Part shown: positions 1,604 through 62,161 of the stretch, in pieces | How the letters are laid out: each line of letters begins with the position of its first letter | Position numbering within the stretch: the first letter of the stretch is position 1 | Origin: an uncultured Hormoscilla sp. | GTDB taxonomy: Bacteria > Cyanobacteriota > Cyanobacteriia > Cyanobacteriales > Desertifilaceae | Direction: 5' to 3' | NCBI GenBank assembly: GCA_963921275.4 | Contig: OZ001293.3 | Location: 4,992,001 to 5,056,000 of the forward strand | DNA length: 64,000 nt | The notes under the pieces: generated by a model | The model's database searches: none | Seen by the model: only the letters and a program-made list of their open reading frames with translations | What the model was told of the DNA's origin: nothing | Made by a program: the position numbers and the translations under genes

Positions 1604-1636
1604 TCGCTAAATTCAAAATTCATGCAGGGGGAAACC

Positions 1637-1815
1637 CTTTGAACCCTCATAACGAGTTGTGGGTTTTACCCCACCTGACTATCCTGGACGTGGTGCCCAG
1701 TTACGCCAGAACGAATCGCACCTACAAGTTATTACCGTTATTTCCAGGGGGAAACCGGTCTTAGCCATCCAAATCACCGGTGATACTGATGAAGTTTCGG
1801 CTAAACGAATCGCAC
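1637..1815 (-). mobile_element. Two nested 5' fragments of group II introns (twintron remnant)
   Basis: GTGCGATTCGTTTAG starts at 1815 and GTGCGATTCGTTCTGG at 1721 on the minus strand, matching the 5' ends of the other introns here; no DV/DVI follows. Confidence 0.75.
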
Positions 1816-1817
1816 AA

Positions 1818-2725
<908 letters not shown>

Positions 2726-38999: not shown

Positions 39000-39260
39000 A
39001 TGACTCTATGACAAAGTCACATGAAGTGAGAGCTTTTTCACGTGACTCTATGGCAAAGTTGCGTTACTCTATGGCAAAGTAACGCAACTTAAACGCAGAG
39101 TTGCGCAACTTTATTGCAGAGTCATGCAATTTAAACGCAGAGTTGCGCAACTCTATTGCAGAGTTACGCAACTTAAACGCAGAGTCACGCAACTTAAACG
39201 CAGAATCACGCAACTTAAACGCAGAGTCACGCAACTTAAACGCAGAGTCACGTTACTTAA
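39000..39260. repeat. 21-bp tandem repeat array (heptad SRNLNAE if translated)
   Basis: (gtcacgcaacttaaacgcaga)n with degenerate flanking units. Confidence 0.85.
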
Positions 39261-39327
39261 TATACTGGTCATGTGACTTTTACGCAGATGATCCGATAAC
39301 AGTTGCTCAAAACCTCATGTAAGGGTT

Positions 39328-39512: not shown

Positions 39513-39681
39513 AGTTACAGCATTAGCCCTAAATCGGGAAAGAGTTATTCCTATCCGTGAGGCAGACAAAGCATTAGGGCGGCATCCACCACTAGGCGAT
39601 TTAATTCAGTCCGACAATTGACAATCAGGTACGATATCGCCGTGACTATATTTGTATCGAGCAGGTAACTCATGTTGCCAA

Positions 39682-39975
39682 CTATCTCCCTTCTACTGCT
39701 GCCTCGAAGATTTCCATTTGCTCTGGCGTGAGCAGGTTTAATGTTCCAGAAACAGCCTCTATCACCATTATTCTATCCACCCTTACTGTCAGTTCGTCAT
39801 GGTCTAGATAGAGCAGTTTTTCTGGAGAAACCCGTTCTAACAGATTTGAGAAAACTTGCATTATTTCGTCTTTGTCTAATCGCTCCCGGAATAGATACTC
39901 CCTTTGCATCAACTTATCCACTATCTCCGAAATTCGGCTTATGACTGTATCCTTGGTCGTAGAAAATTGGGTCAT
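39682..39975 (-). CDS. Putative antitoxin paralog; downstream PIN toxin truncated
   Basis: Similar to 30402-30695; followed by MSYLLDTNIVTA stub from 39673. Confidence 0.7.
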   Translation of the reverse strand: MTQFSTTKDTVISRISEIVDKLMQREYLFRERLDKDEIMQVFSNLLERVSPEKLLYLDHDELTVRVDRIMVIEAVSGTLNLLTPEQMEIFEAAVEGR

Positions 39976-40304: not shown

Positions 40305-41199
40305 GTTAAACTAAGCCAGGGTGTTGCCACCCCGTCTCGTCTTCAGAACCGGACGATCTGCTTTTCATCTCATCCGGCTCCTCAGTAATGCCATCCCTGT
40401 CATGGATACGGCGACTACCATCGCTGGCAGTTTTTTTTTACATCGTAGCAGTTGTCGCCACGTTGTGCCGCTCTGTAAATTCTCAGAAGCAAAAGACTTT
40501 CCTTTCCAGCTTTCGCCAGGGGGGGTTGTCCTCCATTCATTCATCGGTTTGATTACCGTGCTCATAAGGTTTTTACTGCTACTTACAACTTCACATTTGA
40601 CATTACCGTGGTCGGCTTATCCTGTCCATTACAGATAGGCGTTTGCTTCTCCACGAAATCCTTCCTAATCATGACCTGCCTGATGAAGGCAGAGGTTGCG
40701 CCTTTGGTGGCTACTCTCTCTATCGACTCGATAGAGAGTACATGATCAGGTTACTTCGTTCCTACAGATGATTAGTTGTAGCTAAGGATGGATTCCTTAC
40801 GCCGAATTTGTTGTCGGTGCTTACTGGTCGGTGAGCAGAACCGCCAGCGACCTGTATCCTTTCCCTTTTGGGCCGTCAGCCTTATTTCACTGGTTTTATG
40901 TTACGACGCTGCAAATCTTTGCTTTATGCTCATCATGGCTACTTGCTTGGCTTCGATGCCTGAGGGATGCAAGGCAGGCAACCCCTCAGGCATCGGACCG
41001 GTGTAGGCTACCAGTCGCCTTTCATTCCCGCTTTACGGATTGATACCATCGCTACCGTCGGGAATGTGCTGTCACTCCTACACCTGGAGGGGTGGGCTTT
41101 CACCACCATCATCTGTAAGTTGTCAGGGTTTTGTGTTACCCTGCTAGCGGTCCCTTTTACCGGTTATCACCGGTGGAATTTACGCTAAACGAATCGCAC
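40305..41199 (-). mobile_element. Group II intron (895 nt) with internally deleted IEP
   Basis: 5' GTGCGATTCGTTTAG, 3' GGCTTAGTTTAAC; ribozyme collinear with the 59772-62161 intron; IEP stub MSTVIKPMNEW at 40565; EBS1 CTGCT matches exon end TAGCAG. Confidence 0.92.
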
Positions 41200-41311: not shown

Positions 41312-41584
41312 ATGAATATTTTGCTGACACCAGAACTAGAGCAATTTGTCAATGAACGGGTAGAAAAGGGTGAATATCAAGATGCGCTGTCGGTTATTAG
41401 TGCCAGGTTGCGGCTGTTGTCAGAACGGGAACGCATCTATAAAGGACGCTTTGCTGAACTGAAACGGGATGTGATGATTGGAAAAGAACAGCTTGAACGT
41501 GGCGAGGTAATTGATGGAGAAGCTGTGTTTGATGAAATGGAAGAAGATATTTGGCTTCTAGAATCCGTTCGTAGGTTGGGTTGA
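41312..41584 (+). CDS. ParD-like ribbon-helix-helix antitoxin, no adjacent toxin
   Basis: MNILLTPELEQFVNERVEKGEY...G.EQLERGEVIDGE.VF. Confidence 0.8.
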   Translation: MNILLTPELEQFVNERVEKGEYQDALSVISARLRLLSERERIYKGRFAELKRDVMIGKEQLERGEVIDGEAVFDEMEEDIWLLESVRRLG

Positions 41585-41651
41585 CGCCAGGAAACCCAAC
41601 AAAAATCCCATAGCCGTGACTATATTTGTATCGGGTAAATCATGTCGCAAA

Positions 41652-41945
41652 CTATCTCCCTTCTACTGCTGCATCGAAGATATCCATTTGCTCTGTCGTG
41701 AGCTGGTTTAATGTTCCAGAAACGGCCTCTATCACCATTATCCTATCCACCCTTGCTGTCAGTTCGTCATCCTCTAGATAGAGCAATTTGTCTGGAGAAA
41801 CCCGTTCTAACAGATTTGAGAAAACTTGCATTACTTCGTCTTTGTCTAATCGCTCCTGGAATAGATACTCGCTTTGCATCAACCTATCCACTATATCCGA
41901 GATCCGATTAATGACTGTATCTTTGGTCGTATAAATTTGGGTCAT
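41652..41945 (-). CDS. Putative antitoxin paralog; downstream PIN toxin truncated
   Basis: Near-copy of 39682-39975; ATG at 41945 with GGAGG SD; toxin stub at 41643-41615. Confidence 0.7.
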   Translation of the reverse strand: MTQIYTTKDTVINRISDIVDRLMQSEYLFQERLDKDEVMQVFSNLLERVSPDKLLYLEDDELTARVDRIMVIEAVSGTLNQLTTEQMDIFDAAVEGR

Positions 41946-42036
41946 AATGTCCTCCTTGTTCAGTAGGTTCGTAGGTGGGGTTGACGCCAGGAAACCCCAA
42001 CAAAGATCGCAGTAACACGGGTTGGGTTGAGGAACG

Positions 42037-42907
42037 GGATGGGGTCGAGCCGGGAATCGCTTCCCGACCCTCCCTTGAGGAACCGGACTTGCGATTTTCA
42101 CCGCATCCGGCTACTGGGTACTAGGCCCTTTTCATAGGTAGACTTAATAGGAATTACTTCCGTTAGCCCTTGCCGCCTGTCTTTTCTTCCCTTTCCTGGT
42201 TTAGCGAGTGGTTGTTCTGATAACCGTTAGTATCACCATTTTCAAGTCAGTTTTACCAGTTATCCATACCTTATCCTCCACTTGCGTTTCGGATTAGTTC
42301 CGTGGCTTTTTAGGATTACTCATTCCAGCAGCTTCCTAGTATCACCGACCCACGTCAGCGCTGGCTACCCAGCATCATCTACATTACTGTAGATGTTATC
42401 CCAGGAATTACCCCGGGCATTCGCTTCTTGGGCCATCCCTCCCCCCGTGGCTTGCGCTTAACATCTAACTTGTCCTGATGGACAGCACACGAGAGGTTAC
42501 TTCGTTCCCTAACAACATTTCGCGATACCTTTAGGTCCACACTATACCCCGGGAGCTATTTGAGTACTATATTAGCCAGAGTCTAAAACTAATACTAGCT
42601 ACCATTTCCTTTTTAGGCCAGCGCATATAGCCTTATTTCGCTGGTTCCTTATAACGAGGCTTGCACATGTTTGCCTGCTCTAACCTTGGATATCTTTCCT
42701 AGCGGCGTCACCGGCTTAGGCTGCCAGTTATCCTACATTTGAGTCCTCGCTTAGCACCACGATGATGTCGCTTCGTAGCACCGAGGACCGGTGTCACCCC
42801 CGTACCTGGGGGGAGGGGAATTTAACCCCCATGCGGTCAGAGTTCCCGGCTAATGAAACCGGGCTAGCGTTCCGTGTTTGACCACGTTAGGCTAGAACGA
42901 ATCGCAC
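42037..42907 (-). mobile_element. ORF-less group II intron (871 nt) inserted in a REP-like repeat
   Basis: 5' GTGCGATTCGTTCTAG; DV GTAGCCGGATGCGGTGAAAATCGCAAGTCCGGTTC; empty copy of the target (gaggaacg|aaacccaacc) at about 43174-43191. Confidence 0.95.
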
Positions 42908-42994
42908 AAACCCAACCTACAGCCATTAGCCATTCGCAATTAGCAATTAGACCATTTTGTCAAAATGTGGTTACAATTTTTAACCATTATCCTA

Positions 42995-43204
42995 TTAGTC
43001 GGTTTTAACCGACTTTAGCTATTAGCCGGGGGTTTGAACCCCCGGCGGGCTGACGGCGGGCTGACGGCAGGCTGACAGCGAAGTGAGTAAGTTCGGTTGA
43101 CGCCAGTTTTTAGTTCGTAGGTTGGGTTGACGCCAGGAAACCCAACAAAGATCGCAGTAACACGGGTTTGCTTGAGGAACGAAACCCAACCTACAGCCAT
43201 TAGC
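42995..43204. repeat. Stack of REP-like repeats (AGTCGGTTTTAACCGACT family and GTAGGTTGGGTTGA...AAACCCAAC family)
   Basis: Palindromic units also at 38030-38072, 41570-41600, 41965-42036, 46765-46890. Confidence 0.75.
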
Positions 43205-43347
43205 TAAAGTGCTTACTACAAACCTTCGGAAGCACTAAAGTGCTTACTACAAACCTTCGGAAGCACTAAAGTGCTTACTACAAACCTTCGGAAGCACTAA
43301 AGTGCTTACTACAAACTGCAAACAAAGGTTCGTAGTAAGCACTTTAG
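43204..43347. repeat. 31-bp tandem repeat (3 full units plus a partial) closed by an inverted arm
   Basis: ctaaagtgcttactacaaaccttcggaagca at 43204, 43235, 43266 and partial at 43297; inverted gtagtaagcactttag at about 43332. Confidence 0.9.
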
Positions 43348-43362
43348 TCCTTCTTAATAAGG

Positions 43363-45775
43363 TCACTTCCACTCCCGCACTTCGGGCATATCCTGACCGT
43401 GCTTTGCGATATAATGCTTGTGTTCGATCAGCCGATCGCGGATATTCTGTTTAGCATAAGCAGCAGCATATCCCAATTGGGGCACCCGATCGATCGCATC
43501 CGCCGCTAGGTGAAAGCGATCAAGGTCATTGCGGACGACCATATCAAAGGGAGTAGTAGTAGTACCCTCTTCCTTATAGCCTCGGACATGGAGATTTTGG
43601 TGGTTAGTCCGGCGATAGGTAAGGCGATGGATCAGCCAGGGATAGCCGTGATAGACGAAGACGATCGGTTTATCAGTAGTAAAGATAGTATCGAAGTCTC
43701 GATCGGACAGACCGTGGGGATGTTCGCTTTGAGGTTGCAGGGTCATCAAGTCAACCACATTCACCACGCGGATCTTCAGTTCCTGAAATTGTTGACGGAG
43801 AAAGTCCACTGCTGCTAGAGTTTCCAAGGTAGGAACATCCCCAGCGCAAGCCATCACCACATCGGGTTCCGAACCCTGGTCGTTACTGGCCCATTCCCAA
43901 ATGCCAATTCCAGCAGTACAATGCTCCATCGCCGCCTTCATGTCCAGGTATTGTAAGGAGGGTTGCTTACCCGCGACAATTACATTCACATAGTTGCGGC
44001 TCCGCAGACAATGGTCGGTCACGGACAGGAGAGTATTAGTATCAGGGGGTAGGTAAACCCGAATCACGTCCGCCTTCTTGTTGATTACGTGATCGATAAA
44101 GCCAGGGTCTTGGTGGGAAAAGCCATTGTGGTCTTGTCGCCAGACATGGGAAGTCAGCAGGTAGTTCAGAGAGGCGATCGGGCGACGCCAAGGAATTTCG
44201 TTGCGAGTAGTTTTCAGCCACTTAGCATGTTGGTTAAACATGGAGTCGATCAGGTGAATGAACGCCTCGTAGCAGGAGAAGAAGCCGTGGCGACCGGTGA
44301 GGAGATAGCCTTCCAGCCAGCCTTGGCAGGTATGTTCGCTGAGAATTTCCATCACCCGACCGTTGCTAGCCAGGTGGTCGTCTTCGGGGAGAAAATCAGC
44401 TACCCAGGTGCGATCGGTGGCTTCAAACAGGGCGCTGAGACGGTTAGAAGCAGTTTCGTCGGGACCGAACACCCGGAAGTTGGTCATGTTTTGCTTCATC
44501 ACGTTCCGCATAAAACCTCCCATGACTCGGATGGCTATGGCTGCGCCACGCTGCGCGATCGGCGAAGGTGGTGGCTGGTTTGGAGACTTCGATCCCATAG
44601 TCCCGGAAGTCGGGCATTTTCAAGTCCCTCAGCAGGATGCCACCGTTAGCGTGGGGGTTGGCACCCATGCGCCGACCGCCCTTGGGTGCCAGTTCTGCCA
44701 ATTCTGGAATTAATGTGCCATTCTCGTCAAAGAGTTCTTCGGGTTTGTAACTCTTCATCCAGTCTTCCAGCAGTTGGACGTTTACTGGTTTCGTTGCCAT
44801 TTCCGAGAACGGTACTTGGTGACTGCGCCAGTAATCTTCCGTTTTCTTGCCATCCACTTCCTTGGGACCTGTCCAACCCTTGGGCGATCGCAAGACAATC
44901 ATCGGCCATTGGGGGCGCTGGGTAAAGCCCTTGCGGCGGGCATCCTGCTGAATGGCTTTGATATCTGCGATCGCCCGTTCCAGGGTGGCCGCCATCAACT
45001 GGTGCATAGTTTCCGGGTCGGACCCCTCAACAAAATAGGGTTTATAACCGTAACCGACAAACAAGCTTTCCAACTCTGAATGGGAGATCCGGGCCAAAAC
45101 CGTAGGATTAGCAATTTTATAGCCATTCAGGTGTAAAATGGGCAGGACCGCACCATCATGAACCGGGTTAAGGAACTTATTAGAATGCCAACTGGTAGCC
45201 AGGGGACCAGTTTCCGCCTCCCCGTCACCAACAACGCAAGCAACGATCAAGTCCGGGTTATCGAAAGCAGCGCCATAAGCATGAGAAAGAGCATAACCCA
45301 GTTCGCCCCCCTCGTGGATAGAACCCGGGGTTTCCGGGGCTACGTGACTGGGGATCCCGCCGGGGAAAGAGAACTGCTTGAAAAGTTTCTTCATCCCCTC
45401 AGCATCCTGGGAAATATTCGGGTAAACTTCAGTGTAAGTACCCTCCAGGTAAGTATTAGCAACCAACCCGGGACCGCCATGACCCGGACCTGCAATATAG
45501 ATAATATTCAGGTCTAGAGCCTTAATCATCCGGTTGAGGTGAACGTAGATAAAATTAAGACCTGGAGTAGTGCCCCAATGTCCCAACAGCCGAGGTTTAA
45601 CATGTTCTAGTTTCAGAGATTCTTTGAGCAGGGGGTTGTCAAACAGATAAATTTGTCCCACCGAAAGGTAGTTCGCCGCCCGCCAGTAAGCATTCATCGA
45701 GCGCAACTCTTCTGGGGCGAGGGTTTTTTCTGAAGTTATCGCCGTAGCTATGGGTCTTTCCGTTGTAACTGTCAT
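43363..45775 (-). pseudogene. xfp: Phosphoketolase, frameshifted by a 22-nt insertion
   Basis: [38 protein letters not shown]; removing 44537-44558 restores TFAEAIRVMG and joins the two ORFs. Confidence 0.92.
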
Positions 45776-46043
45776 ATTCCTACTCTAAGCTATTGGTCAT
45801 TATTCTCCAACTTAAAGGCTGCTGCCATGAAGTGAATAATAATTTTAGTATCTTTTAACTTTAACTCAGACTTAACCTAAAATTAAGTAAATGTTGAGAT
45901 ATAAAAAGAAGGGGAGATAAAAGAAAAATGTTGTATAATCAAAAAAACGCGATCACTCTAGGATGGTGGGGCGAGAGGATGTGAGGATGGTCCGATCGCC
46001 TGTCTAGACAAGGAAACAGATAGAGGTTAAGAAAAGGATAACC

Positions 46044-46704
46044 ATGAGCTTAAAATTGTATTTTATCCGACATGGGGAAACGGTTTACAGCCAGAAAGGG
46101 GGCTACTGCGGCTCCCTAGATCCGGAGTTAACCAGCGTGGGGATAAAAATGGCAGAATAGTTTGCCGCAGCCTATCATTCTCTCCCCTGGGTAGCAGCCT
46201 ATGTAAGTCCCATGCAGCGGACGATCGCGACGGCGAAACCCTTTATGTGCAGCAGTGGGACTGGAAATGCAACTGCGGGAGGGCTTAAAAGAGATAGCCT
46301 ATGGGAAGTGGGAAGGTCAGTTACCAGAAACGGTAAATAGAGATTTCCACGATGACTACGTCCGCTGGTTAACGGATCGGGTTGGAATGCACCGACAGGG
46401 GGGGAAAGAGGAGTAGATATCGCCCGTCGTTCCGTTCGCGCAGCGTGGCGCAGCCATAGCAGTGATTCACGAGATATGCGAGAATTATCAAACAGGCAAT
46501 GTTTTGGTAGTCTCCCACAAGGCAACTATTAGAATAATGCTATGTAACCTATTGGGAATAGATGTGGGACGCTTCCGCGATCGCATAGCCATGCCAGTTG
46601 GGGGAGTCAGCCTGGTGGAGTTAGGAGTTCACGGTCCTCTGATGCATGCATTGGCAGACCGCAGCTATCTGGAGGAAAACCTGTGATCTTTACCTGGTCA
46701 TTAA
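46044..46704 (+). pseudogene. Histidine phosphatase family protein, multiple lesions
   Basis: IRHGET, VSPMQRT, VSHKATIR; in-frame stops, frameshifts and a 22-nt insert at 46436-46457. Confidence 0.85.
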
Positions 46705-46932
46705 TATATTGATAGTTACGCGATAAAAATCGAGGCGGGCCATGAGAATAAGAGACAATATTTGTAGTCGGTTAAAACCGACTATAGCTATGACGCGGGG
46801 GTTTGATCCCCCGCCGGGTCAGGAGGCTAAGAGACAATATTTGTAGTCGGTTTTAACCGACTTCAGCTATTAGCCGGGGGTTTGAACTGCGGGCCAGGAG
46901 GCTAAGAGACTGTTTAGTTGGGAAGAAATGGG

Positions 46933-48149
46933 ATGAAAATATTGGTACTAAACGCGGGTTCGGTTCTCAGAAAAGTTGTCTGTATGAAATAGCTGAGAAG
47001 ACATTACCCCAACAACCTCCCAAACCACTTTGGGAAGCGAATATAGACTGGAGTGGAACGCTGCGCGAAAAATCGACAGATTTTGGAGAAATGAAGGTTA
47101 AAGCTAAAGGAGTTAAGCTAGAAGTTAAACTGCCAGGGCGAGAAGGGGCAATCGCCCAAATGCTAGAGACTCTCAGTCAGGAAAAAACCCAGGTATTGCA
47201 GCAGTTATCAGAAATAGATATCGTCGGACATCGGGTGGTACATGGAGGTGCAGAATATACGAGGGCTACCTTCATTACTCCCGAAGTTAAAGAGGCGATC
47301 GCCCGCCTAGTACCCCTAGCACCCAGTCACAACCCAGCCCATTTAGAGGGAATAGAAGCGATCGAGGAAGTATTAGGCAAGGTGCCCCAGGTAGCAGTAT
47401 TTGATACAGCCTTTCACAGCCAGATGCCGAAAGCCGCTGTAGTGTATCCGATCCCCTACGAGTGGTTTGAGCAAGGCATCCGTCGCTATGGGTTTCACGG
47501 CACGAGTCATAAATATGCATCAGGAAGGGCGGCCCAAATACTGGGAAAATCCCTAGGAGAACTGCGACTGATTACTTGTCATTTGGGCAATGGCTGCTCC
47601 TTGACAGCCGTCAAGAATGGAGTAAGTATTGATACAACAATGGGGTTCACGCCCCTGGAAGGGTTAATGATGGGAACTCGCAGTGGTTCCATCGACCCAG
47701 CAATCATAATCTACTTGATGCGCCAGCATAATTACGACGTCGATAAATTAGATCGAATGCTGAACAAGGCTTCGGGGTTAAAAGGAATTATGGGAAAATC
47801 CGGAGATATGCGCCATGTTTTGCAGGCGATCGCCGAGGGTGACGAACAGGCGCAACTGGCCTTTGACATGTACGTGCATCGCCTGCGTGCAAGCATAGGA
47901 TCTATGGTTGCGAGTCTGGGCGGTTTAGAGGCGATAGTCTTTACCGCAGGCGTTGGCGAAAATGCAGCAGCAGTAAGGGAGGCCACTTGCGCCGGGTTTG
48001 AGTTCCTGGGGTTGAAACTGGACAAAGAAAAAAATCTCTCATCCCCAAAAGACATAGATATTGCTACCCTAGACTCAGCGGTGCGCGTGTTGGTGGTGCA
48101 GACAGCAGAAGATTGGGCGATCGCCTGCGAATGTTGGTATCTTGGTTAA
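46933..48149 (+). pseudogene. ackA: Acetate kinase with 5' frameshift
   Basis: MKILVLNAGS then a 1-nt loss (SSQKSCLY continues in another frame); GHRVVHGG, FDTAFH, HLGNG, FTAGVGEN intact in ORF 47091-48149. Confidence 0.85.
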
Positions 48150-48323
48150 TGGCTAATGGCTAATATAATAACTAATGGCTAATGGGACTTGGGGAAAAAC
48201 GTCGGGCGGGCGGATCGCCTGCCCGAGGTTCAGTTGGCGCAGTTGGGTTTCGTGCTCGGGACTCAACCTACAGTTGCTAACTGGGGATGGGAGAGCGTTA
48301 GTAGTTAAATGGAGGAAAAACGA

Positions 48324-50485
48324 ATGCAGAACAAAATCCGAGAGCGAGCACTCAGTTACATTGAGATCTTGGGTGCATCTCAGTTAGGCGATGAGTATAT
48401 TTACTCAGCAAAAGTGGATTTACTGAGTCTGATTAGGCAACTAATGCGCCATTCAGGTAGGCACAGCGATGCTTCAACACCTACGGTCCGCGGACGGCCC
48501 GAAAAATCGGCACATTCTCGGCTCGCCATTGTGCCCCCGGTAATTTCACCCTTAACCCAATTTGTTTCACCAGGGACTCAACCCGACCAGAGCCAATCGA
48601 GTGCCGAGCTGCCTGCCCGTTCGCGCAGCGGCCCGACGCCAGGAGGGCTAGCCTGGTAGTCAATGATGCGCGTCTGATGGTGCTTCAAGTAGTTGATCAA
48701 CCCTGTGGCTCCCCGACATTGCTGTTGGCGCAGATAACTAATCGCCCTCTGGGTCTCCCCTCGCCACAGGAGTGCACGGTCCGCGGACGGCCCGAAAAAT
48801 CGGATCTGCACGGTCCGCGGACGGCCCGAAAAATCGGATTGAGCCGGTGTCCCTTGCACCTTATTGGCATTTTCCATTAGGTGATACCAATCGAGCACTT
48901 CGATACGTTGTTCTGGTGTCCCGATACCACTGAAAATGTTCCACACCCCATCATGACCATCTCCGAGACCGGTGAACTGCGCCCCGAGGGGCTGGGCATT
49001 CACCCACTCAAGCAGCCCTTGATTATCCTTGAAGAAAGCCACACTGCCTTGCTCATGGACATTTAAGGCTTTGTATTCTCGCCACTCACCAGGTTGACCC
49101 TCCACGGTCCGCGGACGGCCCGAAAAATCGGTACGAAGGCGAATCATGCCGCCATCCAAGCTGAGCTCCTGAATCGGTTCAGCTATCTCTACCTCAGACC
49201 AGTCCTCTCGTTGAACAAAGCGTTGGAGCGTACTGTGGGAGATGCTCACCCCAGTCAGCATCGCGAGATCTTGTACGGTCCGCGGACGGCCCGAAAAATC
49301 GGCTCTCTGGTAAGAGGCATTGGCACTGACGACCCAACAACATTTTTCCACATACGGACTCCAACGAGTTCCCGGTTTAACTTGCAGTTGTTGGGCTTGA
49401 GCAGTGGTGAGGGTTAGTTTGCCCAGGATACTGGTCAGGGTGCGCTGTTTTCCGGTGCGGCGGGAAGTCGCCGTGTTGATAAAAAAATTCCTAGTTGAGG
49501 CCAGACGTGTTCTTGGGCAAGCGCACGAACGTTTTTCTCAATGCCTTCAAGGGTGGTGAGTTCAGTGGGGTCGGCTTCCTGGTAGAGAATCGCGGCAATC
49601 GCGTCAAGATGTTGCTGGAGTTCAGCCTGCTTTTGGGAGTTCATGGGTCAAGGGTGGTCAACAGTGCCTAAATTATGTACCGTTTTGAGGGAGACAAGCA
49701 CTATGTATAATTACTCATTGCCTAACTGAGATGTACCCGAGATCTTCGGCACTGGGTTTGAGATTTTCAAAGACAACATTACCACGATTGCAGCGATCAC
49801 GCTAGCTGTCACCATTCCCTTTAGTCTGATTGATGAGATCATTATGGGATCGCTATTTCGTCCTCTTGCCGAACTGGATGCTGGGGGCCGTGAACCCGAA
49901 TTAGAGGAAATACTTGTTGCGTTTTCTCAAGTTCCCATGAAGGATTGGATCGTCTATAGCGGATTTACCATTGTGTGGGTAGTCGCCATTATTCTCATAA
50001 ATATGGCAATTTGCTACGTTGTCGAGCAATCCATTTTAAGGCGATCGGTCAGTTGGCAAGATGCCTTGAAACATTCCTTTTCTCGGTTGGGAAGTGCCAT
50101 TGGCACCTGCTTTTTAGTGGTCGCTTTCATTGCCCTGTGGTCGTTTCTGTTCATCGTCGGGGCGCTAATTCCCCTATTTTACTATCAATATGCCATCTAT
50201 GTGGTGGCACTGCGGGGTAAGGGAGGCGGAAATGCGTTAAAACACAGCAGCGATTTCGTTAAAAAGCGATCAGGAACCATATTTATAGTTCTACTGACGA
50301 TTGTTATTGCAAATATAATTGTCTGGAACGTTCTATCGAACTTGATGCAACCGCCGGTTTGGAAAACTGATTGGAACGGATTTGTTTTGGCCATTATGTC
50401 CGATTTACTTATGGCATTTCACATCACCATTGAAACCGTTTTGTTTTTGAATATAGATTACTCGCACGATGGCGAAACAGTCTAA
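48324..50485 (+). pseudogene. Membrane protein gene interrupted by an IS
   Basis: MQNKIRERALSYIEI continues as FGTGFEIFKDN...MGSLFRP once the IS and one target copy are removed. Confidence 0.8.
48371..49738 (-). mobile_element. ISKra4-family insertion sequence, inactivated by micro-insertions
   Basis: TIRs gggtgcatctcagttaggc / gcctaactgagatgtaccc; 8-bp TSD gagatctt (48363-48370, 49739-49746); SLDGGMIRLR, GDGHDGVWN, LDWYHL, IGSG.VES.VKQI motifs. Confidence 0.9.
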
Positions 50486-50722
50486 TCTTAACAGCAAGCA
50501 AGGTGCGAGCGTCGCTCTATTGTTGACAAAGGAACGCATGAGGAAGAGCGATCGCACTGAGGCCCTGCTGCTGCGATCGCTTCCATTTTAATCGGTTTGC
50601 TAATATAATCTCCATAGCATCAGTCTTGAAGAAAAGAGCATGAATGTTCAGGAAATGGGCATTGATGATTCATGTGATATGGTTAAAGGATGATAGTTAT
50701 CGTAATTAGCACATAGCAATAT

Positions 50723-51400
50723 ATGCTACTACTGCAATTTAGTACCTCTCACTATTGTCGCAAAGCAAGACTAGTCCTGGGCTACAAAAAAATTGCCTAC
50801 CAGATAGAAAACCTCACTCCTAGTCTGCATGTCCTGAAGCTGAAACCCCTCACCGGACTGACGACAGTGCCAGTGCTATTACCCCAATTAGAAGGTCAAC
50901 CCCAGGCGATCGCCGACTCGACCAGAATATGGCAATATCTAGAAAGCTACAGCCCCGATCCGCCCTTAACTTTACCCGAGGCGCAACTACAACAGGAAGC
51001 CCAGATGCTAGAAGACTGGTTAGATGAAAGCATCGGTACTGCCACTCGCTTTGTTTACTATCACTTCCGCGCCGGTGCCGGTAAAGACATCGACCCCTCT
51101 TGGTTTAGTCAGCTCGTGATTCAGGTGGTGATTCGTCAATACTCGATTACACCAGCAGCAGTGGAATTAGCCCGATCGCGCCTCAATTTAGCAATGGACG
51201 TGCTAAAATCCCGATGGCAAGACAGCCCCTATCTGGTAGGATCCAATCTCAGCCTAGCAGATATCGCCGCTGCGGCCCTGCTGAGTCCCCTAGCCCTGAT
51301 AGAGGACTACCGCCAATCATATCCCTGGCTGTTCTCACGCATTGCCCAGGTACACAAAACTTGCCGCGAACCCTTGCCCCCAGGACTTGCTGAAGGATAA
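50723..51400 (+). CDS. Glutathione S-transferase family protein
   Basis: STSHYCRKAR, TVPVL, IADSTRI, SLADIAAA. Confidence 0.9.
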   Translation: MLLLQFSTSHYCRKARLVLGYKKIAYQIENLTPSLHVLKLKPLTGLTTVPVLLPQLEGQPQAIADSTRIWQYLESYSPDPPLTLPEAQLQQEAQMLEDWLDESIGTATRFVYYHFRAGAGKDIDPSWFSQLVIQVVIRQYSITPAAVELARSRLNLAMDVLKSRWQDSPYLVGSNLSLADIAAAALLSPLALIEDYRQSYPWLFSRIAQVHKTCREPLPPGLAEG

Positions 51401-51403
51401 TCA

Positions 51404-51685
51404 ATGTATAAATATACTCCCCTGGCCCTGCTTTGGGCGATCTGTACCCTTTCTCTCGCTAGGGCCTTACCGCCACCCTCCGATGTCTCCGAAGAAATCT
51501 TGCGCACCGAGATCCTTACCGAAGCCCGATCGCCAGTTGACGGTAAACCCCTGACCGCCGCCGAGTACGTCCTCTTGCAAGGGAGGCTACAGTCGGAACC
51601 ATCCCCCAAGATCGACCCCCAAATCGAGGAACTGATTTTTCTCCTGCGCATACGTCGTGCCATCCGTACCATCATACCCTTCTGA
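51404..51685 (+). CDS. Conserved small secreted cyanobacterial protein
   Basis: Signal-peptide-like start, EEILRTEILTEARSPVDGKPLTAAEY. Confidence 0.8.
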   Translation: MYKYTPLALLWAICTLSLARALPPPSDVSEEILRTEILTEARSPVDGKPLTAAEYVLLQGRLQSEPSPKIDPQIEELIFLLRIRRAIRTIIPF

Positions 51686-51690
51686 TGTCA

Positions 51691-52562
51691 GTGCGATTCG
51701 TTCTAGCCTAACGTGGTCAAACACGGAACGCTAGCCCGGTTTCATTAGCCGGGAACTCTGACCGCATGGGGGTTAAATTCCCCTCCCCCCAGGTACGGGG
51801 GTGACACCGGTCCTCGGTGCTACGAAGCGACATCATCGTGGTGCTAAGCGAGGACTCAAATGTAGGGATAACTGGCAGCCTAAGCCGGTGACGCCGCTAG
51901 GAAAGATATCCAAGGTTAGAGCAGGCAAACATGTGCAAGCCTCGTTATAAGGAACCAGCGAAATAAGGCTATATGCGCTGGCCTAAAAAGGAAATGGTAG
52001 CTAGTATTAGTTTTAGACTCTGGCTAATATAGTACTCAAATAGCTCCCGGGGTATAGTGTGGACCTAAAGGTATCGCGAAATGTTGTTAGGGAACGAAGT
52101 AACCTCTCGTGTGCTGTCCATCAGGACAAGTTAGATGTTAAGCGCAAGCCACGGGGGGAGGGATGGCCCAAGAAGCGAATGCCCGGGGTAATTCCTGGGA
52201 TAACATCTACAGTAATGTAGATGATGCTGGGTAGCCAGCGCTGACGTGGGTCGGTGATACTAGGAAGCTGCTGGAATGAGTAATCCTAAAAAGCCACGGA
52301 ACTAATCCGAAACGCAAGTGGAGGATAAGGTATGGATAACTGGTAAAACTGACTTGAAAATGGTGATACTAACGGTTATCAGAACAACCACTCGCTAAAC
52401 CAGGAAAGGGAAGAAAAGACAGGCGGCAAGGGCTAACGGAAGTAATTCCTATTAAGTCTACCTATGAAAAGGGCCTAGTACCCAGTAGCCGGATGCGGTG
52501 AAAATCGCAAGTCCGGTTCCTCAAGGGAGGGTCGGGAAGCGATTCCCGGCTCGACCCCATCC
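51691..52562 (+). mobile_element. ORF-less group II intron (872 nt), near-identical to 42037-42907
   Basis: GTGCGATTCG start, DV at about 52485-52519, end CGACCCCATCC shared with the other copy before the flanks diverge. Confidence 0.95.
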
Positions 52563-52721: not shown

Positions 52722-55022
52722 ATGTCAACGACCATTGCCCCCGATCAAATAGACCGGATTGTCTGGAATCAGCATCACGACCCATTTGAGGTTCTCGGAG
52801 CCCACAGAATTGAAAATAATGGTAAAATCAGCTGGGTAGTACGAGCCTATCAACCGACAGCAGAGGCCGTCTGGGTAGTCTGCCCGGACTCACGGACTGA
52901 GTACCCGATGCAGTCGGTACATAATCGGCACTTCTTTGAATGTACCATTGAGAAGCCGGAACTGGCCAACTATCAGTTGCGGATTAAGGAAGGGGAACAC
53001 GAACGGGTAATCTACGACCCCTACGCCTTTCGTTCTCCCAAGCTAACAGACCTTGACATTCACCTGTTCGCCGAAGGTAACCATCACCGCATCTATGAGA
53101 AACTAGGTGCCCACCCCATGAAACTGGGCGGCGTCCAAGGAGTTTACTTTGCTGTCTGGGCACCCAATGCCCGCAACGTCTCAGTGCTGGGGGATTTTAA
53201 CCAGTGGGATGGTCGCAAGCACCAGATGCGGAAAACAGGTAACGGTGTCTGGGAATTGTTTATTCCCGACTTGGATGTGGGCGAACATTATAAATACGAA
53301 GTGAAAAACTACGAGGGGCATATTTACGAGAAGTCCGACCCCTACGGGTTTCAGCAGGAAGTCCGGCCCAAAACCGCGTCCATTGTCACCGACTTAGATT
53401 CCTATAGCTGGAATGACGATGAATGGATGGAACGCCGTCGCCACACTGATGTCCTGAAAGAGCCGATCTCTGTCTATGAGGTGCATTTGGGTTCCTGGAT
53501 GCATGCAGATGCATCACAACTTGCCCAGCTTGATAATGGTGAAACAGAGCTAGTAGTAGTGGTCTCGGATTATAAACCCTATGCGCGCTTCCTGACATAC
53601 CGAGAACTGGCGGCAAAGCTAATTCCCTATGTCAAGGAACTGGGATTTACTCATATTGAGTTGATGCCTATAGCAGAGCATCCCTTTGATGGTAGCTGGG
53701 GTTATCAGGTGACGGGGTACTATGCTTGCACCTCTCGTTATGGAACGCCACAAGATTTCATGTATTTTATGGACCAATGTCACCAAAATGGTATTGGGGT
53801 GATTGTAGACTGGGTTCCGGCCCACTTCCCCAAGGACGGTCACGGTTTGGCATTCTTTGATGGCACCCATCTTTACGAACATGCGGACCCCCGCAAAGGC
53901 GAACATAAGGAATGGGGCACCCTGGTGTTCAACTATTCCCGCAATGAGGTGCGGAATTTCTTGGTGGCCAACGTGCTGTTCTGGTTCGACAAGTACCATA
54001 TCGATGGCATCCGGGTAGATGCGGTGGCGTCCATGCTTTACCTGGACTACGCCCGCAAGGATGGAGAATGGGTAGCAAATCAGTACGGAGGCCGGGAAAA
54101 TATTGAAGCGGCTAATTTCCTGCGTCAGGTGAATCATCTGTTGTTTAGCTATTTCCCTGGTACCATGTCGATCGCGGAGGAGTCCACAGACTGGGCGATG
54201 GTATCCTGGCCCACCTATGTGGGGGGTTTGGGCTTTAACCAGAAATGGAATATGGGCTGGATGCACGATATGCTGGACTACTTCAGTATGGACCCGTGGT
54301 TTCGGCAGTTCCACCAGAATAACGTGACTTTCAGTATGTGGTATCACCACTCTGAGAACTATATGCTAGCCCTATCTCACGATGAGGTGGTCCATGGTAA
54401 AAGCCCTCTGATTGGCAAGATGCCCGGGGATGAGTGGCAGAAATATGCTAACGTGCGCAGCTTGCTAGCCTATATGTTCGCCCACCCAGGCAAAAAGACT
54501 CTGTTTATGAGCATGGAGTTTGGCCAGTGGAGTGAGTGGAATGTCTGGGGGGATCTGGAGTGGCATTTACTGCAGTATGGGCCTCATCAGCAACTGAGGC
54601 AGTTTATGAGTGATTTGAATAAACTATATCGCAGCCAACCAGCCCTTTATACCCGAGATTTTGAGCAAGAAGGGTTTACCTGGATTGATTGTACCGACAA
54701 TCGCCATAGCGTGGTGTCCTTTATCCGCCGCGCCAAAGATCCGAATGATTTTGTGGTAACGGTTTGCAATTTCACTCCCCAGCCTCATTCCCATTATCGC
54801 ATTGGAGTGCCAGAACCGGGATTCTACACGGAGTTATTTAATAGCGATGCTAATCAGTATGGTGGCAGCAATATGGGGAATTTGGGCGGCCAGTGGACTG
54901 ATGAGTGGTGGTTCCACAATTATCCTAATTCCTTGGATTTGTGTTTGCCCCCCTTGAGCGTGCTGATCTTGAAGCTCGATCGCCAAAAGACCCAGGCGGT
55001 GATCGCATCTTCCGATGATTAA
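52722..55022 (+). CDS. glgB: 1,4-alpha-glucan branching enzyme
   Basis: [42 protein letters not shown]. Confidence 0.98.
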
Positions 55023-58018: not shown

Positions 58019-58197
58019 GCAGCTACCACCGCCGCCCTCACCCTAAGGGGCTACACGAACAAAGCCCGCCTGCGCGGGCTAGATTACTTGCATCGAGATG
58101 TTCCCCTAGGATTCGTTTTTCAGAGTATATCCCTGAACTTCGATATCAGGTCGCAATTTCACTTCAATTCGAGTTCTAGTCTGCTCAATATCAGGTG

Positions 58198-59110: not shown

Positions 59111-59157
59111 AGTCCTCGCAAAACCTTGAGGTATTGACGCGGTTTCTGGCTCCTGGC

Positions 59158-59560
59158 GCGATCGCCCCTCCGACCGGAAGACCAAGAAACCGGGTTAGAG
59201 CGATAATTTGGGCTCCTGACGCCAGATTTGGTAAAAGAAACAAAGGTGATGGCTTCTGGCGCGATCGCCTCTCTGACCCGAAGACCAAGAAACCGGGTTT
59301 CACCTGATAATTTGGGCTCCTGGCGACAGATTTGATAAAAGAAACAAAGGTGATGGCAAGACCGTGATCGCCTCTCCGACCCGAAGACCAAGAAACCGGG
59401 TTTTACCCGATAATTTTGGCTCGGCAGATTTGATAAAAGAAACAAAGGTGATGGCAAGACCGCGATCGCCCCTCCGACCCGAAGACCAAGAAACTGGGTT
59501 AGAGCGATAATTTTGGATCCTGGCGACAGATTTGATAAAAGAAACAAAGGTGATGGCAAG
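59158..59560. repeat. About 101-bp tandem repeat x4, each unit starting at a HIP1-like site
   Basis: Units start at about 59158, 59261, 59363 and 59462: gcgatcgcc...gaagaccaagaaaccggg...gataaaagaaacaaaggtgatggc. Confidence 0.9.
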
Positions 59561-59771
59561 GTAACAGCAGGACTTAGGAAACAAATTAGTTATTCGACTA
59601 AAGCATGTTTCTACTTGTTTTCTAGTTACGTTATGTACATATTGAACCCGCGTTCTTTTACGCAAAGGTTTGAACATTATATTCATTGATTCTTTTAGTA
59701 AATCTTCTAATTGATAATTGTTATAAATTTTGTCTCCATAAACTTTTGATGGCAAATCAAAGCAATTGGAG

Positions 59772-62161
59772 ATTAAACTAAGCCAGTCCGTCACCGGACC
59801 GACTCGTCTTCAGAACCGGACGTGAGACTTTCACCTCATCCGACTCCTCGGCAACATCACCCTTGTCATGGGTACGGCTGTTTTTGCTGCCACCGTTGAC
59901 AGTCTTTGAGTCGTGGCAATGCTTGTGCAGTAATTGTAGGTTGTCATACCGGTCCTTACCTCCTAATGAAAGGGGCTTGATCTGGTCAACTTCCCATTTG
60001 TCACTGTCCTTGAATGTTAGTCCGCAGTGTTGGCATTTTCCTTTTTGCTTCTTAAGTAGCGTTGCTACCCTCTTACTCAATTCGGGGTTTTTGCCTAACC
60101 TTGTACTCCAATATGTAAGGTTCCCGTCATATGGGCTTGCTATTCCTTTCACTTTTACGTGTCTGACTATCTCAGTTTCGGAGTGTTTGCGCAGCGTTAT
60201 CTCTCCCTCTCCTGTCTTACATCGGAATCGCCATTTACCATCCTGGTCTACGGACCAGTACTTACGGGCTATCCAGTGACTTGACTTATTAGGGTGCCTC
60301 CTTTTGGCCCATTGCCATAGGATGTTCCATAGGTATTTATCCATATCGTTGTAAGTTTCCTTACTTACCACTGTCCTGTAATAGTTTGACCATCCCCGTA
60401 TTATTGGGTTTAGCCTACTTATCAAGGCCTCTTGCGGTATTGTTTTATGGCTAGTTACCACTTCTGATAACCGTTCTTTATGTTTCCCTATGGACTTTTT
60501 ACTGGGTTTGATTAGGGTTTTGTAGCCTAGGGGTGTTCCCTGAGTTGATTTGCCGGTTCTGTGTTTTCCCACCTGATGTTGCCTTACGTTGAATCCTAGG
60601 AAATCAAACCCCGGGTTTTCTTCGATTAGTGTGTGGGCTATCTTTGTCTTTTCGGCTTTCAGCTCTAACCCCATTCCTTTTAGCCACTCTGCTACCACTG
60701 TCTGCGCTCTGTCTATCATCTCCCTATCCTCGTGCATTATCACAAAGTCGTCTGCATATCTAACTACTGTTAGCTTCTGCTTTTCCCTTTGTGTCATAGC
60801 GAGTTTCTTTACTGCCTCCTCTAACCCGTGGAGGGCTATGTTGGCTAGCAGTGGGGATATGACACCCCCTTGGGGCGTTCCCGCCTCGGTTGCGTGCCAC
60901 TCCCCTTTGTCCATCACACCGGCTTTTAACCATGCCCGTATTTGTCTAGGAATGGGTGATGTTGTATTCAGTTTTTCCAGTAGCGCCCTGTGGTCTATCT
61001 TGTCAAAACATTTTGCAATATCAGCATCCAATACCCACTTTGATTTTTGTTTGATGCTTCCGAATATTGCCTGTATTGCATCGTGACATCCCCTACCCGG
61101 TCTGAAACCATAGGAGTTTCCTTCCATATGCGCCTCCCATTCGGGTTCAAGCGCAATTTTGAGGAGTCCTTGTGTCGCCCGGTCGTACATCGTTGGTATT
61201 CCTAGTGGACGCTTTTCGTCTCTCCCTGGTTTTGGTATCCATACACGACGTGTAGGTTTGGCCTTGTTTGAGATTTCAATTTGTCCTACCAGTTCTAAGC
61301 GTTGCTTTGGGGTCAGTGCTTTTACACCGTCCACTCCCGCTGTCTTCTTTCCCTGGTTGTCTTGAGTTACCTGTCGTACCGCTAGACTTTTGGCAGCCCG
61401 GGATTTTACCAGTAACCTTTGGAGTCTGCGAACCGTTCGCTTATTGCCTTCCATTGCCGCTCTGTAAATTCGTTTTTGCAACTTAAAGACTACCCGATCC
61501 AACTTTCGCCAGGGGGTATCCTTCCATTCATTCATCGATTCGGAGATCGTGCTCATGACGTATGCATTGCTACTTACAACTTCACAATTGACGTTACCGT
61601 GAGGGCGTCAGCATATCCCGTCCATTACAGAAGGGCGTTAGCTTCTCCACGAAATCTCTCCCAGATACAACCTGCCAAATAAAAGCAGATGTTGCGCCTG
61701 TGGTGGCTACTCAACCTATCGACCTGTGGTTGAGAGTATGTACCTGGTTTACTTCGTTCCTCTAGATGATTGGTCGTAGTTTTAGGTGGACTTTCTATGC
61801 CGGGTTTATTGTCAGTGCTTATTGGTCGGAAAAACAACCGCCAATGACCTGTATCCTTTCCCTTTTGGGCCAGCGCATCAGCCTTTTCGCTGGTTCAATG
61901 TAACGACACTTATATGAGTCTTTGCTTTCGCTCACCATGACTACTTGCTTGGCGGTAACTGGTTCAGGCTACCAGTTATTGCGCCTTTCTTACCCGCTTT
62001 ACGGATTGATGCCATCGCTACCGTCGGGTAAGTGCTGTCACTCCTGCACCTGGAGGGGTGGACTTTCACCACCATCATCTAGAAGTTGTCAGGGCTGATG
62101 GAACCCTGCCAGTGGTCCCCCATCGACTTATCGCCGGTGGTTTACACTAAACGAATCGCAC
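59772..62161 (-). mobile_element. Full-length group II intron (2390 nt, chloroplast-like class) with IEP
   Basis: 5' GTGCGATTCGTTTAG at 62161, DV GAGTCGGATGAGGTGAAAGTCTCACGTCCGGTTC, 3' GGCTTAGTTTAAT. Confidence 0.95.
59778..61556 (-). CDS. ltrA: Group II intron reverse transcriptase/maturase with C-terminal HNH-like domain
   Basis: RPLGIPT, SYGFRPGR, GTPQGGVISPLL, VRYADDF, FDFLGF, LNPIIRGWSNYY, CQHC...HKHCH. Confidence 0.96.
   Translation of the reverse strand: MSTISESMNEWKDTPWRKLDRVVFKLQKRIYRAAMEGNKRTVRRLQRLLVKSRAAKSLAVRQVTQDNQGKKTAGVDGVKALTPKQRLELVGQIEISNKAKPTRRVWIPKPGRDEKRPLGIPTMYDRATQGLLKIALEPEWEAHMEGNSYGFRPGRGCHDAIQAIFGSIKQKSKWVLDADIAKCFDKIDHRALLEKLNTTSPIPRQIRAWLKAGVMDKGEWHATEAGTPQGGVISPLLANIALHGLEEAVKKLAMTQREKQKLTVVRYADDFVIMHEDREMIDRAQTVVAEWLKGMGLELKAEKTKIAHTLIEENPGFDFLGFNVRQHQVGKHRTGKSTQGTPLGYKTLIKPSKKSIGKHKERLSEVVTSHKTIPQEALISRLNPIIRGWSNYYRTVVSKETYNDMDKYLWNILWQWAKRRHPNKSSHWIARKYWSVDQDGKWRFRCKTGEGEITLRKHSETEIVRHVKVKGIASPYDGNLTYWSTRLGKNPELSKRVATLLKKQKGKCQHCGLTFKDSDKWEVDQIKPLSLGGKDRYDNLQLLHKHCHDSKTVNGGSKNSRTHDKGDVAEESDEVKVSRPVLKTSRSGDGLA

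Follow-up and report, generated by a model that had tools for sequence, protein, structure and literature searches.

Group II introns that lack an open reading frame (ORF) are rare in bacteria and are nearly always accompanied by a related intron that carries an intron-encoded protein (IEP) (PMC4424553). In Thermosynechococcus elongatus, one study describes 'driver' IEPs that mobilise ORF-less introns, whose exon-binding sites (EBS) have diverged into families and which occasionally insert ectopically; the poorly matched copies are interpreted there as rare retrotranspositions that are expected to splice poorly (Mohr, Ghanem and Lambowitz 2010, PMC2882425). For Trichodesmium erythraeum, a second report gives 10 of 17 spliced introns as ORF-less (Pfreundt and Hess 2015, PMC4649490). 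Here we analyse a 64,000-nt stretch of DNA from an uncultured Hormoscilla sp. (contig OZ001293.3, positions 4,992,001 to 5,056,000), called the window throughout, which contains two almost identical ORF-less group II introns, copies A and B. We put at about 70% the probability that both copies result from recent insertion of a single non-autonomous intron; the initial annotation had likewise proposed such an intron with recent movement to unrelated sites, and the identity of the copies, the precision of insertion and the lack of an ORF support this proposal. The copies, and the empty counterpart of one insertion site, are as follows.

42037-42907, minus strand: copy A, an ORF-less group II intron of 871 nt, identified by alignment to copy B, an RF00029 match and the empty paralog; 5' end GTGCG at 42907, 3' end ...CCCCATCC at 42037, EBS2 TAAGG at 42647-42651, EBS1 AGACTC at 42579-42584.
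51691-52562, plus strand: copy B, an ORF-less group II intron of 872 nt, identified by alignment to copy A and an RF00029 match; EBS2 TAAGG at 51948-51952, EBS1 AGACTC at 52015-52020, domains V and VI (DV/DVI) at 52484-52562.
43113-43204, minus strand: empty paralog of the ~100-nt intergenic repeat that hosts copy A, identified by alignment to the flanks of A.

Pairwise alignment matches the copies over 871 of 872 nt with no substitution and one indel, the extra G already remarked near 51865: B reads GGG at 51865-51867 where A has GG. The two lie ~8.8 kb apart as an inverted repeat whose arms, 697 nt and 176 nt long, are each 100% identical. Similarity ends exactly at both element termini; the flanks are unrelated, and blastn found no second copy of the B flanks in the window. 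The empty paralog, noted earlier as lying about 270 bp away and placed here at 275 bp, agrees with the 5' flank of A at 23 of 23 nt and with its 3' flank at ~94% over 70 nt, and the flanks of A abut in it at 43182/43181 with no gap, overlap or duplicated bases. Judged against this paralogous empty site, copy A is a precise insertion without target-site duplication. Copy B sits, as first described, between a small gene and glgB: it begins 5 nt past the stop of ORF 51404-51685, in which no Pfam match was found, and ends 159 nt ahead of the gene for a GlgB protein of 766 amino acids (aa) at 52722-55022. DNA transposons and miniature inverted-repeat transposable elements are marked by terminal inverted repeats and target-site duplication; on inspection the ends of A and B (GTGCGATTCG... 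and ...GACCCCATCC) are not inverted repeats, and the flanks of A meet at the empty site without duplicated bases.

Two further repeats lie near copy A and its empty counterpart. A 97-aa ORF is duplicated at 39664-39975 and 41634-41945 (minus strand; 91% identity over 300 nt, no Pfam match), and copy A is inserted in the leader of one of the two; beside the empty repeat unit, perfect 31-nt tandem repeats occupy 43204-43316.

Both copies have the characteristics of a group II ribozyme. Each contains a DV/DVI match to RF00029 (42039-42115 and 52484-52560) that scores 44.4 bits against a gathering score of 40, with further matches in the window at 1854-1931 and 59772-59848 (both minus strand), and each begins with GTGCG (at 42907 on the minus strand and 51691 on the plus strand), as expected from the 5' consensus GUGYG. 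The intron start, GTGCGATTCGTT, occurs eight times in the window at no more than one mismatch, against 0.24 occurrences expected. We aligned copy B with an intron in a tRNA gene of the same window, described below, and with three complete relatives from other Hormoscilla genomes (loci L003, L013 and L058); in this small sample of five members, RNAalifold yields a consensus fold of 211 pairs, 97 of which show a compensatory double change. Copy B forms 206 of the 211 pairs, and this result, taken with the compensatory changes, indicates that the RNA fold is under selection and intact in A and B. The family also has a conserved domain IV (DIV) of its own, ~230 nt long. A relaxed-threshold Rfam search meant to class the ribozyme returned only a sub-threshold D1-D4-2 match (22.6 bits against 36); by the best match of the window's IEP, the RNA may be IIB/chloroplast-like. 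A column search for EBS3, by covariation with the first 3'-exon base, returned stem columns only.

The elements are ORF-less, as had been claimed. Their largest internal ORF is 53 aa long, and tblastn with the window's IEP gave no match to either copy, even with the cutoff at E<=10; the tRNA intron is likewise free of any such remnant. When the exons of A, B, L058, L013 and L003 were joined, the resulting ORFs gave no sign of an interrupted protein gene on the sense strand.

The 3' boundary deserves comment, since the Rfam match ends at ...CCCCAT (52560 in B, 42039 in A), 2 nt short of ...CCCCATCC. We place the end at the latter, because the empty site, the structure of the tRNA and eight copies in Hormoscilla sp. 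SP12CHS1 agree on it, and the element ends proposed initially are accordingly retained over those of Rfam. The eight SP12CHS1 copies are alike up to ...CCCCTAAC, after which each runs into different sequence. The family 3' end thus lies 4 nt past CGACCCC (ATCC), with an unpaired A at position -9.

A third, diverged member of the family interrupts a tRNA gene in the window.

1853-2687, minus strand: family member within a tRNA-Arg(UCU) gene, 835 nt, ORF-less; exons 2688-2725 and 1818-1852; EBS1 TTAGAA, EBS2 CCCTT.

The gene (1818-2725, minus strand) is split within the anticodon loop and is detected by ARAGORN only after its exons have been joined in silico. ARAGORN accepts both of two candidate 3' splice sites, and we chose the end at 1853 because it leaves an anticodon loop of 7 nt and agrees with the family 3' ends, 4 nt past CGACCCC. 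Over its full length the tRNA intron is 73% identical to copy B and contains the shared blocks quoted in the initial annotation, which confirms the homology noted there; its EBS sequences differ, as that annotation had also remarked. Having no ORF, this intron must depend on a trans-acting factor, and the host presumably needs the tRNA-Arg(UCU) gene. It resembles the introns of plastid tRNA genes (trnK, trnV, trnG and others; see also PMC13578239) in being an ORF-less family member in a tRNA anticodon loop, but differs from them in its bacterial chromosomal host, in the identity of the tRNA, Arg(UCU), and in having sister copies that appear still to be moving. Searches of the open-access full-text literature found no free-living cyanobacterium reported to carry a group II intron in a tRNA gene. 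At 1625-1815 (minus strand), immediately after the split gene, are two tandem pieces of ~95 nt, each of which opens with GTGCGATTCGTT (1804-1815 and 1710-1721) and contains GGTTTCCCCCTG; they resemble intron starts that have lost their 3' part, or else a small repeat of derived origin.

Relatives outside the window were sought by scanning genome contigs with a 32-nt DV motif, which returned at least 87 loci, none of those listed being from the source genome. The motif itself was rejected as a family marker, as it is common to introns of Actinomycetota, Chloroflexota, Pseudomonadota and others. Among the 87 loci listed, 14 resemble the family beyond the motif, and all 14 come from three Hormoscilla assemblies. 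Wherever a judgement is possible the relatives lack an ORF (the complete L058, L013 and L003, and L039, which is contiguous over its 3' half), and no IEP match at E<=1e-5 was found in the intron sequence upstream of DV in L003, L013, L025, L038, L039 or L058. The Hormoscilla relatives are multi-copy, many with different flanks, which indicates that the family does transpose. Family members are 61-75% identical to one another over domains I to III (DI-DIII) and vary near both ends, at positions 7-16 and in the last 4 nt. Six SP12CHS1 loci (L046, L048, L067, L078, L079 and L080) start or stop inside the family DV, a mark typical of a high-copy repeat. Blastn in distant mode against a plasmid collection gave no match to copy B, and the open-access full-text literature yielded no study of Hormoscilla group II introns. 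In two SP12CHS1 loci family copies adjoin or lie near other introns: at L038 the 5' half of a family intron runs into the 3' end of an oppositely oriented copy, and at L048 a family copy lies less than 2 kb from a heavily deleted intron of the IEP type. Nested or clustered insertions seem common in this genome.

We sought next to determine how well the copies pair with the sites they occupy. EBS1 lies in a terminal loop and EBS2 in an unpaired stretch, at points where the relatives hold differing sequences. The tRNA intron pairs with its own 5' exon at 11 of 11 positions, all Watson-Crick, a score reached at just 3 of 127,920 window positions; L003 likewise pairs at 11 of 11, and L013 and L058 each at 10 of 11. 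Because these four introns pair well in one register, the EBS register is validated, and with it the positions first assigned in copy B to EBS1 (AGACTC, 52015-52020) and EBS2 (TAAGG, 51948-51952). The remaining three of the seven junctions examined fall short of 10-11 pairs. Copy A forms 8 of 11 (EBS1 6 of 6 with two G-U pairs, EBS2 2 of 5), copy B forms 7 of 11 (EBS1 3 of 6, EBS2 4 of 5) and L038 forms 6 of 11, so the loose pairing described earlier for both A and B is borne out. An EBS1 fit of 6 of 6, as in A, occurs at 165 of the 127,920 window positions (0.13%). The repeat family that hosts A is intergenic and consists of two hairpins of the GGTTGGGTT...AACCCAACC type, with units at 41567-41602, 41945-42036 and 43113-43204 (minus strand), and two of its units hold empty sites that pair at 11 of 11 positions with the EBS sequences of A and B. 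As a separate observation, all three insertion sites in the window lie in predicted hairpin loops, that of the tRNA intron being the anticodon loop.

Ectopic retrotransposition sites of the Ll.LtrB intron characteristically match EBS1 well and pair poorly with EBS2, as the site of A does. Since both sites match the EBS poorly, ectopic retrotransposition is the likeliest account of A and B. The relaxed specificity suggested initially is accurate as to the poor fit of A and B, but the family norm of 10-11 pairs of 11 runs counter to it, and ectopic insertion is the better description. On the scheme established for group II introns, a copy of the intron would be transcribed, and a reverse transcriptase/maturase from another intron would bind the RNA and assist its splicing; the excised lariat ribonucleoprotein would then reverse-splice into DNA at a site picked mainly through EBS1/EBS2 pairing, and the inserted RNA would be copied into DNA. 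A and B probably come from a master copy that lies outside the window, at a site matching the EBS well (approximately CCTTA-NN-GAGTCT). Copy A shares GG at 51865-51867 of B with the tRNA intron and the three Hormoscilla relatives, against GGG in B; the extra G of B is therefore derived, and by this comparison the ancestral state is the one carried by A or by a sequence identical to it.

For a protein that might act in trans, the window offers one intact gene, together with a decayed intron of the same type.

59771-62161, minus strand: IEP-bearing group II intron, candidate helper; ORF 59778-61556 encodes 592 aa with RVT_N, RVT_1, GIIM and HNH domains.
40305-41199, minus strand: ORF-deleted, decayed derivative of an intron of the IEP type, 79.5% identical to the ribozyme of the IEP intron.

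The IEP is intact, with reverse transcriptase, X and HNH domains, lies 7.2 kb from copy B and is the window's only reverse transcriptase gene. Its best relative of solved structure is chain C of PDB entry 6ME0, 'Maturase reverse transcriptase' (E 4.5e-113), which we take to be the T. elongatus T.el4h protein. The IEP intron has its first 12 nt and several core blocks in common with A and B, and over DI-DIII its identity to B is 57%, clearly above the 41.0 +/- 2.0% of a shuffle baseline. An identical DV 32-mer is present in three other cyanobacterial introns (L005, L041 and the ORF-less L069), which reach 41-44% over the same domains, the level of the baseline, and the IEP intron is the nearest IEP-bearing ribozyme relative among those compared. 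Beside the family copy at Hormoscilla L048 there is also a partial IEP of this type (67% over 120 aa). The neighbouring IEP is thus the best available candidate helper, and a candidate only, as 57% identity is far from a parent-offspring relation. With 58.5 bits, the DV of this intron also passes the gathering score of RF04357, a plastid ndhA/ndhB domain-V family.

The decayed element at 40305-41199 retains N- and C-terminal remnants of the IEP and carries an extra ~40-nt hairpin insertion in domain I; at the gathering score it gives no RF00029 match, its DV being no longer detectable. It represents another kind of ORF-less intron, outside the A/B family, and seems to be a dead derivative of the sort exemplified by the TeI3 introns of T. 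elongatus.

Comparison with TeI3, which PMC2882425 describes together with its TeI4 'driver' IEPs, shows where A and B agree with the known case and where they depart from it. Families with different EBS, some poorly paired sites and an IEP of the same broad type are common to both, and the several near-identical copies with exact boundaries and no target duplication by which introns of the TeI3 type are recognised are represented here by two copies in a 64-kb window. The TeI3 introns, however, retain N- and C-terminal remnants of the ORF on either side of a common deletion and are closely related to their helpers (PMC2882425), whereas A and B have no ORF remnant, are 54.5-57% identical to the nearest IEP-bearing ribozyme, and have Hormoscilla relatives that, where they can be judged, are ORF-less too. 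The TeI3-like case in this window is the decayed element and not A or B. With Trichodesmium the locus shares a filamentous cyanobacterial host and ORF-less introns which, according to PMC4649490, are numerous and thought to depend on trans-encoded maturases; the introns treated there lie inside protein-coding genes and are considered for their splicing, whereas A and B are intergenic and the evidence on them concerns movement. Of the two precedents for mobilisation in trans cited in the initial annotation, Thermosynechococcus holds (PMC2882425), but what the part of PMC4649490 considered reports for Trichodesmium is splicing assisted in trans and not mobility.

Several observations weigh against two recent, protein-assisted insertions of one intron. 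The combined fit of copy B (3 of 6 with 4 of 5) is equalled or bettered at 2.6% of window positions, so EBS pairing does little to account for the location of B, and at least 28 window positions with a fit of 10-11 of 11 stand empty, two of them within the repeat family in which A lies. At its 3' terminus the intron has CC and not the usual AY with a branch A 7-8 nt upstream; this is a deviation in detail and not in fold, and the 3' splice site is putative. Poorly paired copies are expected to splice poorly (PMC2882425), and A and B may for that reason not be active sources; the master copy is a postulate. As for the helper, the IEP intron is only 54.5% identical to B overall, with 76% over 62 nt in DV/DVI, and single-sequence folds, themselves no better than those of shuffled sequences (z -1.2 to +1.4), revealed no DIVa hairpin common to B, to the tRNA intron and to introns of the IEP type. 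No IEP-bearing intron of the A/B lineage was found in the window or among the 87 loci listed. The initial annotation had looked to an IEP-bearing intron with the same DV/DVI, and the window does not supply it, its only IEP intron having a different DV/DVI and 57% DI-DIII identity.

Since the neighbouring IEP belongs to an intron of a different lineage, a gene beyond the window could just as well encode the helper, and a reading in which mobility depended on an IEP or a free-standing maturase or reverse transcriptase from elsewhere, or on reverse splicing without a dedicated protein, seems to us a serious minority possibility. The 54.5-57% identity of the IEP intron, its different DV/DVI, the absence of a common DIVa fold among those predicted and the family's own conserved ~230-nt DIV all suit such a helper, as does the reliance of Trichodesmium ORF-less introns on trans-encoded maturases described in PMC4649490. 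The neighbouring gene nonetheless has in its favour that it is the only reverse transcriptase gene in the window and belongs to the closest IEP-bearing ribozyme among those compared, that the same IEP type occurs alongside a family copy at Hormoscilla L048, and that some T. elongatus IEPs serve several intron families (PMC2882425).

The identity of A and B might alternatively have arisen by gene conversion between old, independent insertions, one copy overwriting the other and so creating the EBS mismatch; the near-identity would then give no date for a transposition. Conversion within a chromosome is plausible over ~8.8 kb, the distance between these inverted copies, and each site pairs well with one EBS only (A with EBS1, B with EBS2), as overwriting could yield. 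The identity, however, reaches the terminal nucleotides although family members vary near both ends, the flanks offer no homology in which a conversion tract could start, the EBS2 fit of B is just 4 of 5 with a combined fit found at 2.6% of positions, and the Hormoscilla copies with their many different flanks indicate a family that transposes; we regard conversion as improbable. Least credible is an assembly artefact, in which one copy would be a repeat placed twice or a mis-join. Repeats of ~870 nt often cause such errors, and six SP12CHS1 loci do start or stop inside the family DV, but A and B have unique sequence on all four flanks and junctions exactly at the intron ends, they differ by one base, and the flanks of A rebuild an intact repeat unit.

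Taken alone, two recent insertions of one non-autonomous intron would add one more example of behaviour known from Thermosynechococcus. A broader and more speculative interpretation, which we consider rather unlikely on present evidence, is that the family is a long-lived lineage comparable to the short interspersed nuclear elements (SINEs): it would have lost its ORF before its split from the compared Hormoscilla copies, would borrow the protein of another lineage while still transposing, and would have one member fixed in tRNA-Arg(UCU). The early loss of the ORF is suggested by the 61-75% DI-DIII identity among members together with a structure kept by compensatory changes. If the SINE-like interpretation is correct, the tRNA member would be a living model for the origin of plastid trn introns. 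The window places side by side an intact IEP intron, its decayed ORF-deleted copy, and a distinct lineage without an ORF, whose fold is preserved, which probably moved very recently and is also present in a tRNA gene; it thereby offers a compact system for the persistence of non-autonomous introns, the reach of IEP specificity and dependence on a shared splicing factor.

Elsewhere in the window, a 21-nt tandem array of ~10 units occupies 39003-39296. A phosphoketolase gene at 43363-45775 (minus strand) appears to be split into two overlapping ORFs, 43363-44598, which contains XFP and XFP_C, and 44444-45775; this could reflect a frameshift, decay to a pseudogene or an error in sequencing. A single Rfam CRISPR-DR28 match, with no array seen around it, lies at 58058-58081 (plus strand; 36.6 bits against a threshold of 35), and repeats of ~100 nt are found near it at 59157-59557.

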